Source: an uncultured Gammaproteobacteria bacterium (GTDB lineage Bacteria > Pseudomonadota > Gammaproteobacteria > QNFE01 > CAZPSE01). Taken from it: DNA of 64,000 nt. Position 1 is the first letter of the stretch, and each line of letters starts with the position of its first letter. The notes beneath the pieces were generated by a model. It was not told the DNA's origin. It saw only the letters and a list, made by a program, of their open reading frames with translations, and did not search any database. Shown one piece after another: positions 835 through 6,563 of this stretch. Location: the NCBI GenBank assembly GCA_964589575.1, contig CAZPSE010000004.1, positions 4,075-68,074 on the forward strand, in the 5' to 3' direction. A program made the translations under genes and the position numbers.

Positions 835-1028
835 TAATGCACCTAGTAAAACTAAAAACCGTCTCATCACCAATTAAGGTGATCACGACGTTTTTAATTT
901 CCCTATGCACATCAAATGATTACACCCGTTTCATATTTCTATATAAGGGTTAGGGTAAAAGGTAAATTGCAGGAAATTGCAAAATAATGTAAAGTTCCCT
1001 CTTTTAAAAAATCACAAGGTATAGGCAC

Positions 1029-1718
1029 ATGACAAATTTTAGAATTGCCCCATCTATTTTAGCAGCAGATTTTGCAAAACTCGGTCAAGAAGTTGATGAC
1101 GTTTTAGCATCAGGTGCCGATGTTGTTCATTTTGATGTAATGGACAACCATTACGTACCAAACTTAACCATAGGGCCATTAGTTTGCGAAGCCTTAAGAA
1201 AACACGGCGTAACCAAAGATATTGATGTGCACTTAATGGTTAAACCTGTAGATAGAATCATCCCCGATTTTATAGATGCCGGTGCAAGCTTTATTACTTT
1301 TCATCCAGAAGCGTCAGATCACATAGACCGTACTTTATCAATGATTCGTGAAGGCGGTTGTAAGTCTGGCTTAGTATTTAACCCCGCAACGCCTTTAAGC
1401 TATTTAGAACATGTAATGGACAAGGTAGACATAATTTTAATGATGTCTGTAAACCCCGGTTTTGGCGGTCAAAGCTTTATACCAGAAACATTAGTTAAAT
1501 TACGTGCCGCACGCAAATTAATAGACGCAAGCGGATACGACATTAGCCTAGAAATTGATGGTGGCGTAAAAGTAGATAATATTAAAGAAATAGCAGAAGC
1601 AGGGGCAGATATGTTTGTAGCAGGTTCGGCCATATTTAGTGCCAGAAACGAAGCAGATGAAAACCATTACGATACGGTTTTAAAACAGTTCCGCGAGCAA
1701 TTAGCCTTAGTTAAATAA
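1029..1718 (+). CDS. rpe: Ribulose-phosphate 3-epimerase
   Basis: [37 protein letters not shown] motifs. Confidence 0.97.
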
Positions 1719-1721
1719 TTA

Positions 1722-2393
1722 ATGCTTACCAAACCAGAGCTAATTTTAATCGACGTTGATGGAACATTAGTAGACAGTGTTCCCGATTTAGCCTATTGCG
1801 TAGATGAAATGCTAAAGCAATTAGCTATGCCAGTAAGGGGCATAAAAGCGGTAAGAGAATGGGTAGGTAACGGCGTAGAAACATTAACCAAACGTGCTTT
1901 AGTAAACGCGCTAACTGGCGAGCCAGATGCAGCATTATTTGCCAAAGCAATGCCCATATTTGATGCGTTATATGCAGTCAACAATTCTAAACGTAGCAAT
2001 TTATACCCAGGCGTTTTAGAAACATTAAAAGCCTTTAAAGCCGACCCAAGTTACCGCATAGGTTGCGTAACCAATAAAGATGCGCGTTTTACTATACCAA
2101 TACTAAAAGCTTTAGGCATTCATCACTTTTTTGAAATTATTGTTTGTGGCGATACTTTAACAAAAAAAAAGCCAGACCCCATGCCGTTATTACACGTCGC
2201 TAAAAAATTAGGCGTAAAGCCAAAAAATGCACTAATGTTAGGTGACTCTATGAGCGACGTAAAAGCCGCACGCGCAGCCGGTTTTAAAATAGTATGTATG
2301 AGCTATGGCTACAACCACGGCGAAGACATACGCGATTACAACCCAGATGCAGTAATAGACACCATGACCGAGTTCCACGCTCTAGTACAATAA
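1722..2393 (+). CDS. gph: Phosphoglycolate phosphatase (HAD family)
   Basis: DVDGTLVDS, VTNK, KKPDP, GDS motifs; follows rpe. Confidence 0.93.
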   Translation: MLTKPELILIDVDGTLVDSVPDLAYCVDEMLKQLAMPVRGIKAVREWVGNGVETLTKRALVNALTGEPDAALFAKAMPIFDALYAVNNSKRSNLYPGVLETLKAFKADPSYRIGCVTNKDARFTIPILKALGIHHFFEIIVCGDTLTKKKPDPMPLLHVAKKLGVKPKNALMLGDSMSDVKAARAAGFKIVCMSYGYNHGEDIRDYNPDAVIDTMTEFHALVQ

Positions 2394-2406
2394 AACGCAC
2401 ATACCT

Positions 2407-2460
2407 AAACCGTACCGAGCAAGGCTCGTAACGCGTTACGAGCCTTGCTCGGTACGGTTT
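2407..2460. repeat. REPIN-like perfect palindrome 1 (inverted REP doublet)
   Basis: 54-bp perfect palindrome with core GTACCGAGCAAGGCTCGTAAC-GC-GTTACGAGCCTTGCTCGGTAC. Confidence 0.9.
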
Positions 2461-2493: not shown

Positions 2494-2523
2494 AATTAAA
2501 AATTTTAGTTAGGCTATCGGTAA

Positions 2524-3951
2524 AATAAACCACAAAACCACAAAACCACAAAACCACAAAACCACAAAACCACAAAACCCCATCAATCCCAAGCTAAGTT
2601 TTTTTTTGCGTTAAGCTTTCTCTTTTTAACCGCGTGCGGCGGTTCTTCCGACTCTACTCCATCATCTACTAATACAGCACCCGTTGCGAATAGCCAAAAC
2701 ATAACAGTAGACGAAGATAACAATAGGGCAATAACCCTAAGCGCAACCGATTCTGATAACAATACCTTAAGCTATACCGTAATCACTCAACCAAGTAATG
2801 GTTCGCTAACAGGTACAGCGCCTAATTTAAGTTATACCCCAAATGCCGATTATAACGGTGCAGACAGTTTTACCTTTAAAGCTAATGATGGTACGGTAGA
2901 TTTTGCAACCGCAACAGTAAATATAAGCATTAACCCAATCGCAGACGTAAACCTAAGCAATGTTAGCCAAAACGAAGGCAGTAGTGGTACAACTACAGTA
3001 ACCTTTACGCTCACTTTAGATGCTTTTGAAAATACCGCCAGTGTTGATTATGCAACCCAAGACAATACCGCAATCGCTGCGAATAATGACTATGTAGCAA
3101 AAGCAGGTACCGTAACCTTTACGGGGGGTATAACCACACAAACCATTAGTATTACGGTTAATGGCGAGGGCACCGTAGAAGACGACGAAACCTTTACTTT
3201 AAACCTAAGCAACCCCAGTAATTTACAACTGGCTAACACCAGCGCCATTGCCACTATTAAAAATGATGATGCGCCAAGGTTAAACGACACAGGCATAACC
3301 TGGGCAGGGGGATACGCTGGTGGTAATAAAACTGGCAATGACTGCACCACAACAACCATTACCGGCAACCAAGACTGTCACCAAGGGCGCGACAGCACCA
3401 ATAATGACGACACCGACGGCATGGCAGGTTTTAGCTTTACCAAGCTAGATAATAATGCAGTAGCCTTAGCAGACCAAAGCCAAACCAACCACGTTTGTGT
3501 AAAAGACAAGATAACAGGGCTAATTTGGGAGGTAAAACAAACCACAGGCACACGCAGTAACACTACTAGATACCGTTGGGGTGGTTTAACGGCTATTGGC
3601 CGTAACCATGCCAGTAAAGAAGGCACATACTATGATGATTGGAATGTACTGATAAATTACGCAAACGATACCGATAATGCCAACACTACAGATAGTGCAT
3701 TATGTGGCTTTACCGACTGGCGTGTGCCAGATAGTGAAGAATTACGATCAATAGCCCATTTAGGTAAAAGCAACCCTGCGATCGATCAAAACTATTTTCC
3801 TAATACCAAAATAAATGATGGGTATTGGAGTTCGTCGCCCATTGCTAACAACTCTCACAATGCCTGGAGACTGAACTTTAACAGAGGCCATGACAGCGGT
3901 AACATTCGTAGCAATTACGATTATATGCGTTTAGTTAGAGGCGGACAGTGA
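2524..3951 (+). CDS. DGR target 1: lipoprotein with Ig-like (Big_9/cadherin-type) domain, Calx-beta domain and C-terminal DUF1566 (CLec-fold) domain; start codon unresolved
   Basis: Frame open from 2524 to stop at 3951, far upstream of the listed ATG 3421. Lipobox LTA-C (Cys 2635-2637), APVANSQ...YTPNADYNGADSFTF, VDYATQDNTA...ETFTLNLSNP, LNDTG, DWRVP..EL, YWSSS...RLVR motifs. No in-frame ATG/GTG/TTG before the lipobox. Confidence 0.85.
   Translation, partial: NKPQNHKTTKPQNHKTTKPHQSQAKFFFALSFLFLTACGGSSDSTPSSTNTAPVANSQNITVDEDNNRAITLSATDSDNNTLSYTVITQPSNGSLTGTAPNLSYTPNADYNGADSFTFKANDGTVDFATATVNISINPIADVNLSNVSQNEGSSGTTTVTFTLTLDAFENTASVDYATQDNTAIAANNDYVAKAGTVTFTGGITTQTISITVNGEGTVEDDETFTLNLSNPSNLQLANTSAIATIKNDDAPRLNDTGITWAGGYAGGNKTGNDCTTTTITGNQDCHQGRDSTNNDDTDGMAGFSFTKLDNNAVALADQSQTNHVCVKDKITGLIWEVKQTTGTRSNTTRYRWGGLTAIGRNHASKEGTYYDDWNVLINYANDTDNANTTDSALCGFTDWRVPDSEELRSIAHLGKSNPAIDQNYFPNTKINDGYWSSSPIANNSHNAWRLNFNRGHDSGNIRSNYDYMRLVRGGQ
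2530..2577 (+). repeat. Simple sequence repeat (CCACAAAA)6
   Basis: Six exact 8-bp units; a T9 tract follows at 2599-2607. Confidence 0.97.
3823..3951 (+). repeat. DGR variable repeat VR1
   Basis: Aligns to TR with 10 mismatches at TR adenines and 2 at non-A positions; has 15 nt absent from TR. Confidence 0.92.
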
Positions 3952-3964
3952 TTTAATTTTTATT

Positions 3965-4332
3965 ATGTCAAATTATCAAAACATTCCTATCTTGCGTGAT
4001 GCACGCCTAATGATGGTTGAAGTAGAACGGACTGTAAAAGACTTTCCTCGTTATCATAAATACACCATGGGCAGTGAATTAAGAAAAAAAGCCATGGATA
4101 TTTATCAGTTTGTTAGCCGTGCCATACAATATAAGCATACCCGTGCAAAATGGGTGCAACATTTAATGCTTGCGATAGATGATTTTAAATGCCAAATACA
4201 AATAGCCAAATAGCCAAAGAGCTGAAAGTATTTAAAAGCTTTAAACAGTTTGAATTATTAGCCAAATACAGCCTTGCTTTAAGCAAACAAAGCAAAAGCT
4301 GGTTGCAAAAAATAGGTGCAACCCATGGCTAG
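3965..4332 (+). pseudogene. avd: DGR accessory variability determinant (Avd-like four-helix bundle), disrupted
   Basis: FPRYHKYTMGSELRK motif; position between VR1 and TR; 8-bp duplication TAGCCAAA (4203-4218) creates TAG at 4211; removing one unit restores a 119-aa ORF ending at 4332. Confidence 0.85.
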
Positions 4333-4358
4333 CCCAGTTGTAACGTCAACAGCCCGTA

Positions 4359-4401
4359 AAAATAGGGTTGTTAAAATAATCTATTTTAACAACCCTATTT
4401 T
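4359..4401. other. Perfect 20-bp hairpin between avd and TR
   Basis: AAAATAGGGTTGTTAAAATA-ATC-TATTTTAACAACCCTATTTT. Confidence 0.85.
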
Positions 4402-4507
4402 GTGTGCTGATTTCACTGTGCTCCCCAAACACCTGCTTGCAGGTAATAGTGAGCAAACCTACTACGTAAAAATTGTGGGTAAGCGTTTAAGTTTTGGGGT
4501 TAAACAT

Positions 4508-4621
4508 CATTGGAGTTCGTCGCCCAATGCTAACAACTCTAACAATGCCTGGAAACTGAACTTTAACAACGGCAATGACAACAATAACAATTATATGCGT
4601 TTAGTTAGAGGCGGAAAGTGA
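4508..4621 (+). repeat. DGR template repeat TR
   Basis: AAC/AAT-rich copy of the VR1/VR2 sequence; differences fall almost only at its adenines; lies between avd and RT. Confidence 0.93.
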
Positions 4622-5253
4622 AGCAGTGTGTTAGCTATAAAAGTTTGTATTGTGCATGGCAAACTTGCCGTAAAGGTAAAAGTGCAGGCACGCAAGCACA
4701 AATGTACGAAGCAAACGTGCTAGAAAACTTACATAACACACAACAGCTAATGGCAACCATGGCAAGCTATTATGGCCATGTGGCTCACGCTAAGTATTAC
4801 CGTCAAACAATGGCTATATTTAAACAATATTATTACTTGTCGTACTTATATCACCCTATCAACATAAAAAATAAGGGTTTAAAACCTTGCATAACCCCCC
4901 TGCAAGTTACAGGGTTTAAGGCGCAATGTTATTATTTTAGCCAAAGTATTAATGGCTATGCAGCACTTACCTTAATACAAAAAGGCTATTTATTGGTAGT
5001 AAGTAGTAATGATGCACAAATAATAAGCCCTATTTTTGTACGGCAAGCTAAAAAAATAACCCAAAAGCAGTTTTCTTACCCATTAAAAAGTTGGGCTTTA
5101 ATAAGGCAGCAGTTACTTAACAATAATTTAAGTTATCAATTTATAACAGAGCAGGGTTATTTAAAAGGCGGGTTAAAAAAACGTGTACTAAAAGAACTCT
5201 TTATAAACAACCATCAAATAAACCCCATATGGAGTGACAATGCCCCAAAGTAA
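4618..5253 (+). pseudogene. DGR reverse transcriptase remnant: N-terminus joined in frame to the C-terminal region, catalytic core absent
   Basis: SLYCAWQTCRKGK...YEANVLENL resembles DGR RT N-termini; SYYGHVAHA resembles their C-terminal motif; no YxDD; only 211 aa. Confidence 0.75.
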
Positions 5254-5761
5254 AACGATAATAATTTTAATGGTACTAAGCAGTGTTTTAAGCAGTACAG
5301 CACAGGCACAAACCATAAAAAACTATATAGATAACCAATGGAAAAACAGCCGTTACACTAACCATAATGACGCTACCGTAACAGACACCAAAACAGGCTT
5401 AATGTGGAAACAATGTGTAGAAGGTTTAACCGGCAATACGTGTGGTACAGGCACTGCAGTTACCACCTACACTTGGAAGGCTGCGCTAGAGTTAGCCAGT
5501 AGTACCACTTTTGCCACTTATAGCGATTGGCGGCTACCTAACATTAAAGAACTGGCAAGCCTAGTAGCGCGCGATCGTTATAGCCCTGCCATTAATAGTA
5601 GCCTTTTCCCTAATACGCCAAGTATCCGTCATTGGAGTTCGTCGCCCGCCGATGCTGGCGGCTCTGACGGTGCCTGGGGACTGAACTTTGAGCGCGGCGT
5701 TGACAGCGGTGACGATCGTATCAATGACTATTGGATGCGTTTAGTTAGAGGCGGACAGTGA
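5240..5761 (+). CDS. DGR target 2: secreted DUF1566 (Lcl C-terminal, CLec-fold) protein
   Basis: GGAG RBS before ATG 5240; signal peptide; VTDTKTGLMWKQC, DWRLPNIKEL, HWSSS...RLVRGG motifs; ends in VR2. Confidence 0.9.
   Translation: MPQSKTIIILMVLSSVLSSTAQAQTIKNYIDNQWKNSRYTNHNDATVTDTKTGLMWKQCVEGLTGNTCGTGTAVTTYTWKAALELASSTTFATYSDWRLPNIKELASLVARDRYSPAINSSLFPNTPSIRHWSSSPADAGGSDGAWGLNFERGVDSGDDRINDYWMRLVRGGQ
5630..5761 (+). repeat. DGR variable repeat VR2
   Basis: Aligns to TR with 22 mismatches at TR adenines, 2 at non-A positions, a 3-nt insertion and the same 15-nt extra segment as VR1. Confidence 0.92.
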
Positions 5762-5776
5762 TTTAATTTTTATTTT

Positions 5777-5847: not shown

Positions 5848-6513
5848 ATGTCTGTTAGAAAAATCACTTTTGTTAATGATGGCTATTACCATGTTTTTAA
5901 CCGTGGGGTAGATAAACGCGTTGTTTTTACCGATAGAGATGAGTTAAATTTTTTCTTAAACCGATTGAGTGATTTAAATAGCGTGGATACTTCGAACGCT
6001 TTAAAGAGTAAACGCTATAGGTTAAAGGGCGAACTTGCCCTTGCAGATACTGAAAAGTTGGTTAGTATTGTGGCTTATTGTGTTTTGCCTAATCATTTTC
6101 ATTTATTGTTAAAACAAAAAACAGACGATGGCATTAGTAAGTTTATGCAAAGGCTTGGTACGTCTTATGTGCATTTTTTTAATAAAAAACATCAGCGTTT
6201 GGGCAGTTTGTTTCAGGGTAAGTTTAAAGCTACGGCTTTAAATGGCGATTATGCTTTGGCAAAAGTTGCTAGTTACGTTAATTTAAATTTTAAGCATCAT
6301 CGTATTGACCCCAAAAAGAATATAGTTAAGTCGAGCATGGCTGAATATATTGCGCTTAATGTAGAAAACCCTATTTGTGATAGCCAAGAAATTAGCAATA
6401 TTATTGATGAGGTGGGTGGTGTAAGCCAATATAAAGAAATGGCAAAAAGTGCATCTATTGTTTTTGCCAGTAATAAAAGCACAAGTCTTTCTGAAAAAGA
6501 TTTCGAATTTTAA
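5848..6513 (+). CDS. REP-associated tyrosine transposase (RAYT/TnpA-REP, Y1 HUH family)
   Basis: YYHVFNRG, AYCVLPNHFHLLL (HUH), FQGKFK and YVNLN (catalytic Tyr position) motifs; palindromes on both sides. Confidence 0.88.
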   Translation: MSVRKITFVNDGYYHVFNRGVDKRVVFTDRDELNFFLNRLSDLNSVDTSNALKSKRYRLKGELALADTEKLVSIVAYCVLPNHFHLLLKQKTDDGISKFMQRLGTSYVHFFNKKHQRLGSLFQGKFKATALNGDYALAKVASYVNLNFKHHRIDPKKNIVKSSMAEYIALNVENPICDSQEISNIIDEVGGVSQYKEMAKSASIVFASNKSTSLSEKDFEF

Positions 6514-6517
6514 CTGC

Positions 6518-6563
6518 CGTACCGAGCAAGGCTCGTAACGCGTTACGAGCCTTGCTCGGTACG
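6518..6563. repeat. REPIN-like perfect palindrome 3
   Basis: 46-bp perfect palindrome identical to the core of palindrome 1, 4 bp after the RAYT stop. Confidence 0.9.

Follow-up and report, generated by a model that had tools for sequence, protein, structure and literature searches.

Within the window, namely the whole 64,000-nucleotide stretch of DNA from an uncultured gammaproteobacterium that was analysed here, a gene encoding a surface lipoprotein once diversified by a DGR (target 1) carries at its 5' end a perfect octanucleotide repeat and a run of nine Ts, and it shows no start codon of its own. The question raised by this locus is whether such an arrangement is a slippage-controlled switch that turns the gene on and off, or whether the gene has simply been silenced. 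If the former were true, the octamer count would toggle a surface receptor whose binding site is diversified by a retroelement, and two layers of programmed variation would be stacked on each other. We know of no earlier case where one surface protein combines SSR phase variation with DGR hypervariation; a real switch would be the first known stacking of this kind, and it would be found in an uncultured environmental gammaproteobacterium.

Reading frame, signal peptide and octamer array

The features of the 5' region of target 1 are listed below.

2407-2460, no strand assigned: REP-type palindrome, terminator-like, with a stem of 20 pairs and then a T run; its 30-nt arms recur at 6517-6563
2466-2493, + strand: promoter-like site, TTGCAA, 16-nt spacer, TAAAAT, with TG before (9/12 matches)
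2511-2529, + strand: remnant ribosome-binding site and start region, in which AGG (2511-2513)...TAAAATA corresponds in the alignment to AAGG(A)...TAAAATG in the orthologs
2524-3951, + strand: frame of DGR target 1 from stop to stop, open over 475 codons and intact apart from the missing start
2527-2579, + strand: octanucleotide microsatellite (TRF: period 8, 6.6 copies, 100% matches)
2581-2598, + strand: codons H-Q-S-Q-A-K of the signal-peptide n-region, homologous in frame to Q-S-Q-T-V-K and Q-Q-Q-I-A-K in the orthologs
2596-2637, + strand: hydrophobic core and lipobox, KFFFALSFLFLTAC in translation; the ortholog forms are KFFLALIFLFLTAC and KFFLVLIFLFLIAC
2599-2607, + strand: T9 tract, translated as Phe-Phe-Phe within the signal peptide; both orthologs and the Logan contig L177 have T8 here

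The target 1 frame reads NKPQNHKTTKPQNHKTTKPHQSQAKFFFALSFLFLTACGGSS... and encodes ...AKFFFALSFLFLTAC, with the Cys codon of the lipobox at 2635-2637, and the domains of its product are Big_9/Cadherin-like, Calx-beta and Lcl_C (DUF1566), the last of which is matched with E = 1.2e-26. As expected for a lipoprotein processed by SPase II, a positively charged n-region is followed by a hydrophobic core and by ...AKFFFALSFLFL-TAC, a motif kept in the orthologs, where the comparison with the lipobox consensus [LVI][ASTVI][GAS]C was made by eye and not by a predictor. Moreover, the C-terminal VR of target 1 matches the nearby TR, as it does in a DGR target.

Counted in exact units, the array is (CCACAAAA)6 at 2530-2577 (48 nt, 16 codons), and its translation in the lipobox frame is PQNHKTTK twice. 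Both the six units and the T9 tract (2599-2607) indeed lie between the candidate promoter and the lipobox, as originally noted. The array consists of several perfect copies and is long enough to slip; matches to two units of the octamer number five in the window, where shuffled sequences would give 0.02. The frame arithmetic put forward in the original prediction is correct as well, that is, 2, 5, 8 or 11 units, or T7/T10, join ATA 2525 and ATC 2516 to the lipobox frame. It is these triplets only, however, that a copy number of 5 or 8, or T10, brings into frame with the lipobox. The claim that no ATG, GTG or TTG stands between the candidate promoter (2466-2493) and the lipobox also proved right, as far as in-frame triplets up to the Cys codon are concerned: canonical start triplets are present but out of frame, namely TTG 2606-2608, which is followed by CGT TAA, and GTG 2634-2636. 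As for near-cognate starts in the present frame, there is just AAG 2596, which we rejected as not credible. In other words, the repeat lies neither within a promoter nor between a functional start and the body of the ORF, since no ATG, GTG or TTG is usable in any frame and the only triplets on offer are ATA 2525 and ATC 2516, and no promoter element spanning the array was found. Initiation at ATA or ATC reaches about 1-2% of that at AUG in E. coli (bioRxiv 10.1101/063800), and at target 1 it would be negligible.

The array is unique in this genome, where no other copy of it was found, and among 400 other genomes of the class none contains the octamer three times in tandem. Nor does any other non-triplet SSR occur at a gene 5' end in this genome, and therefore a repertoire of contingency loci is missing. 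The sole other long non-triplet SSR in the genome is (TGGTTAA)n, which appears outside the window as two perfect (TGGTTAA)5 arrays flanking an N run (contig C23:16527-16716) between convergent gene ends; as a candidate for a second contingency locus it was rejected, being one longer heptamer array that an assembly gap divides in two. We also rejected the idea that the octamer belongs to a dispersed family of regulatory repeats or iterons, since its array is unique in the genome and absent from the 400 genomes of the class; it resembles a DnaA box (CCACA) only weakly, and in the wrong context.

The palindrome at 2407-2460 looks like a terminator, which from its sequence would close the upstream gph gene and separate it from the target gene. 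The promoter-like sites found in the region number two against 1.2 expected by chance, which makes the site at 2466-2493 weak evidence of a promoter. The search for Rfam families in the leader returned none, only chance hairpin matches to the REP palindrome.

The probable loss of the start codon as seen from the orthologs

A protein search gave two orthologs with complete 5' ends: P0001 (locus L094), which is 64% identical across 94% of the length of target 1, and P0004 (locus L095), which is 55% identical. No relative above 66% identity was found in the scans of genomes, metagenome contigs and relatives, and the ortholog evidence comprises just two 5' ends, both of them distant (55-64% identity). 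Both orthologs open with ATG CAA CCA. The next codons are ACA ACA CAA TCA CAA ACT GTT in L095 and ATA ATA CAA CAG CAA ATA GCT in L094, and in both of them this GCT/GTT is followed by AAG TTTTTTTT (AAG TTT TTT TT.), so that the encoded pattern is MQP..Q.Q..KFFL..IFLFL(T/I)AC. The tandem repeat is absent from the two orthologs, which have just CA-rich codons (CAACCAACAACACAA) at this place, and these codons are likely, judging from the alignment, to represent the seed from which the array grew.

It is the reading frame of the ortholog codons that tells whether the array has silenced the gene. CCA 2530 and CAA TCC CAA 2584-2592 share their frame with Pro3 and with the Q-S-Q of the orthologs, which means that the 48-nt array between them is an in-frame insertion of 16 codons. 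Similarly, H-Q-S-Q-A-K-F-F-F of target 1 matches Q-S-Q-T-V-K-F-F-L of P0004, and hence the frame given by T9 is the correct one and the present frame is the ancestral one. Counted from the ancestral ATG, the array with its six units and with T9 is in frame, and so the repeat number is not the silencer. Six units being a multiple of three, which would happen by luck in one case out of three, gives a weak hint that the array reached its length while the gene was still being read.

The lesion is seen instead at the start codon. Where the orthologs have TAAAATGCAACCA, the window has TAAAATA-AACCA once the array is collapsed in the alignment. The ancestral ATG would have stood at 2525-2527 and would have been damaged by one substitution and the loss of one nucleotide; we infer that the damage, read from one MAG assembly, truly exists and did not arise during assembly. 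The Lys codon at 2596 comes 71 nt after A2525, one base short of being in frame, which matches the loss of a single base at the ATG. Target 1 has therefore lost its start at the very position where both orthologs have an intact ATG, while an AGG is still found 11 nt upstream of ATA. In the leader, moreover, both orthologs have about 32 nt more than the window between a shared ATTTTTAGTTA and the block GG(C/A)T...TAAAATG (window 2504-2515; L095 73-118; L094 424-471), and in L095 these additional nucleotides include the inverted repeat ATGCAATA-TAATT-TATTGCAT together with TATAAT. With this segment absent here, the ancestral promoter or operator may have been partly lost as well.

No full-length product of target 1 is found among 5.8 billion clustered proteins, and the only protein on record is a 176-aa C-terminal piece, gene-called from ATG 3421. 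The other possibility raised in the original prediction, namely that the gene is currently silenced, is in this way supported: none of the alleles found has a usable start, and the gene callers give the 176-aa piece only.

The T tract, a second assembly and the decay of the cassette

A second view of the locus is provided by the Logan contigs of run SRR9822617, the only Logan run found, which were reached by exact-protein look-ups. Two of them, L176 (window 902-2439) and L178 (window 3925-5764), show 100% identity with the window across 1538 nt and 1840 nt, respectively, whereas L177 (window 2550-3954) differs at two places only, having T8 instead of T9 and A instead of G at 2639 (G2639A). The comparison covers the two sides of the start region, with about 3.4 kb of flanks (L176 and L178) together with L177; for a Logan contig over the start region, boundaries of 2431-2556 are predicted from 30-mer branching. 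With k = 31 the Logan contigs break inside the array and give no copy number. The second of the two differing sites is described as follows.

2639, + strand: assembly-variable base, G in the window (Cys-Gly) and A in L177 (Cys-Asp; L177 position 89)

In E. coli lipoproteins, Asp at position +2 is a signal for retention in the inner membrane (Lol avoidance). The two differences of L177 lie within 41 nt of each other among the 4782 nt compared, for which the chance is roughly 0.02. The T8 version puts TAA 2595-2597 in the lipobox frame, and consequently the T8 allele is dead at any repeat number. Thus the heterogeneity of the poly-T tract, which was expected for a switch, does exist between the two assemblies, but what it reveals is a second null allele and not an ON phase; one independent assembly, in other words, carries a further independent null mutation in the population. 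As for the T9 run itself, we rejected it as a specialised switch: it consists of inherited Lys-Phe-Phe codons, which contain a T8 in each ortholog, and runs of exactly nine A or T number 52 in the genome (29 T9 and 23 A9).

Downstream of target 1, the DGR cassette comprises the following features.

3965-4213, + strand: avd, truncated, 82 aa (profile NF033474, positions 3-74 of 104, below the cut-off; the ortholog Avd has 110 aa)
4498-4621, + strand: template repeat (TR), 15 nt shorter than both VRs
4618-5253, + strand: reverse-transcriptase (RT) remnant, 211 aa, with no RT domain

The differences between TR and VR in the alignment are mostly at adenines of the TR. The ORF at 4618-5253, however, has no Pfam or NCBIfam match to an RT domain, and RVT_1 has no match in the whole genome, so that a functional RT with Avd to keep diversifying the target is not found. 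As judged from these sequences, the DGR around target 1 is decayed and not functional any more. The suggestion that switching is layered on DGR diversification accordingly no longer applies to the present state of the cassette, in which the RT is a remnant without its domain and the genome is without RVT_1. The frameshift in avd is an 8-bp tandem duplication at about 4203-4218 (TAGCCAAA twice), with the rest of Avd encoded in the next frame by the ORF at 4189-4332, and it is the second 8-bp slippage event in the cassette.

One of the orthologs offers a similar picture. In L094, which comes from another metagenome, positions 1930-2539 encode a 110-aa Avd, after which there is only an ORF similar to the C-terminal portion of the RT remnant, and no TR can be recognised. 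This locus thus appears to be without TR and RT N-terminus, yet its target is intact and starts with ATG, which indicates that targets can outlive their DGR. Decay seems to recur in this DGR lineage. Within the window, a second small Lcl_C target (5234-5761) keeps its start and its signal peptide (MPQSKTIIILMVLSSVLSSTAQA), the start being lost in target 1 only. Beside the DGR there is also a REP-associated tyrosine transposase at 5848-6513 (NF047646, E = 1.9e-10, below the cut-off), and the palindrome copies at 2407-2460 and 6517-6563 flank the cassette.

Dead gene or switch, in comparison with known systems

Taken as a whole, our results favour, with somewhat better than even confidence, the interpretation that target 1 is a recently inactivated gene, that is, a pseudogene, which carries a young microsatellite and whose lesion lies in the start codon and not in the repeat. 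The array would be lineage-specific, having arisen by replication slippage from the CA-rich codons 2-6 (CAA CCA ACA ACA CAA in a relative) of the signal-peptide n-region. The ATG would then have been lost after the expansion of the array or at about the same time, an order of events that we infer; TAAA-ATG-CAA-CCA of the relatives would have become TAAA-ATA-AAC-CA here, leaving no ATG, GTG or TTG in a useful frame. Both the array and T9 may act as mutational hotspots, and the T tract would add further null alleles. Such a silencing of the target would fit the decay of the whole cassette, in which the RT core is lost, avd frameshifted and the TR shortened. What speaks against the pseudogene reading is that all 475 codons of the frame remain open in a genome of 38% GC, so that either the inactivation is very recent or some selection persists; for a pseudogene, the open frame would point to a recent loss. 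The layout itself speaks against it too, since a perfect array of 6.6 copies right after the start position, in signal-peptide codons, is the classic arrangement of translational phase variation. No reachable state of the locus restores a canonical start, and a working phase-variation switch is therefore unlikely. The slippage-controlled ON/OFF expression that was originally proposed finds no support as a working mechanism: no length of the array or of the T tract frames a canonical start, the ancestral ATG is damaged, and the array is frame-neutral. The array is at most the relic of such a switch, and membership in the contingency loci fails on three counts, namely the functional start, the conservation and the repertoire.

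A live phase-variable gene would nevertheless be conceivable if translation started at AUA 2525 or AUC 2516, in which case 5 or 8 units would be ON and 6 or 7 OFF, and/or the T length would decide, and the assembled allele would be an OFF state. For such a gene the frame arithmetic holds, the SSR stands directly after the start position and in signal-peptide codons, the long ORF is intact, the AGG lies at 11 nt from ATA, the T-tract length differs between two assemblies, and the ON product INHKTTKP...AKFFFALSFLFLTAC would make a plausible lipoprotein precursor. However, initiation from AUA or AUC is very weak (in E. coli 1-2% of that from AUG; bioRxiv 10.1101/063800), ATG occupies this position in the orthologs, T8 inactivates the gene at any number of units, the only length variant observed is that of the T tract, with both alleles OFF, and a further locus of the contingency type is absent from the genome; we regard a live gene of this kind as quite unlikely. 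We are just as doubtful of a broader version, in which the array, as a contingency locus, would still turn a DGR-diversified lipoprotein on and off in the natural population, some cells keeping the ATG or AUA being sufficient, and the allele seen here would be a null or OFF one. The assembly itself should also be considered, for the true or majority haplotype may have an intact ATG and/or another unit number, and the gene would then be alive. The MAG is fragmented (it has N gaps and consists of 94 contigs), the lesion lies right beside a tandem repeat, a place where assembly tends to go wrong, the independent assembly disagrees at two nearby positions, and with the lost base restored the ATG, the six units and T9 are exactly in frame. 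On the other side, the MAG and the Logan contigs agree over the 4.8 kb compared on the two sides of the start region, save at two sites, at both of which the frame stays open in the MAG, and no assembly has a full-length gene call. An artefact of assembly or consensus is for us an unlikely explanation, though one that deserves some weight, and within it, with the same limited probability for the two together, the array would represent a stable insertion in frame or else a true switch driven by the ATG.

Infidelity of the polymerase has the least to recommend it. RNA polymerase slipping on T9 would produce some U10 transcripts, in which AUA or AUC is joined to the lipobox, and a low constitutive expression would result. 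T10 does join the two frames, and runs of at least nine A or T are reportedly slippage sites in bacteria and endosymbionts according to the work of Baranov and of Tamas. But a non-canonical start would still be needed, the combined yield would be minute, and the orthologs give no support, so that we consider this mechanism highly improbable.

With the pseudogene reading, the locus would illustrate cleanly how CA-rich codons of a signal-peptide region can give rise to a microsatellite, and it would show a DGR cassette caught while decaying gene by gene. It also calls for caution, as a start codon missing beside a repeat need not mean a slippage switch; here it was the alignment with the orthologs that showed a frame-neutral array and a damaged ATG.

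Among the known systems, the opa genes of Neisseria, whose CTCTT pentamers provide translational phase variation, resemble the present locus in having a non-triplet SSR after the start, in the signal-peptide codons of a surface protein, where each unit gained or lost shifts the frame. They differ from it in their functional ATG, their documented copy-number switching and their multigene family, whereas here the ATG is damaged, the unit has 8 nt, and the locus is unique in the genome. Another comparison is offered by the hmw genes of H. influenzae, in which the promoter repeats grade transcription. The repeats of hmw1A/hmw2A, which are located in the putative promoter region, have a 7-bp unit ATCTTTC, or an 8-bp unit GCATCATC in biogroup aegyptius (PMC3309571). 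They count among the few precedents for a hepta- or octanucleotide SSR before the gene of an adhesin-type surface protein; the array here, unlike the hmw repeats in the promoter, is downstream of the ancestral start and in former coding sequence. With regard to the retroelement, the DGR of Legionella pneumophila with its target LdtA, as well as DUF1566/Lcl_C targets, share with this cassette the order of a lipoprotein with a C-terminal variable domain, then avd, TR and RT. The cassette here, in contrast to that of Legionella, has lost the RT core, the avd frame and 15 nt of the TR, and its target is without a start codon. LdtA is exported with a Tat-type signal. Finally, the pseudogenes arising by loss of the start codon in reduced genomes and decaying mobile cassettes are alike in having a single start lesion in an otherwise intact ORF, and in that a second null allele segregates and the neighbours in the cassette are broken too, though the gene here also bears a perfect and very young microsatellite by which it resembles a contingency locus. 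Target 1 thus belongs to known kinds, being probably an SSR-bearing pseudogene inside a decaying DGR and, at the same time, a genuine DGR target with the DUF1566/Lcl_C type of domain.
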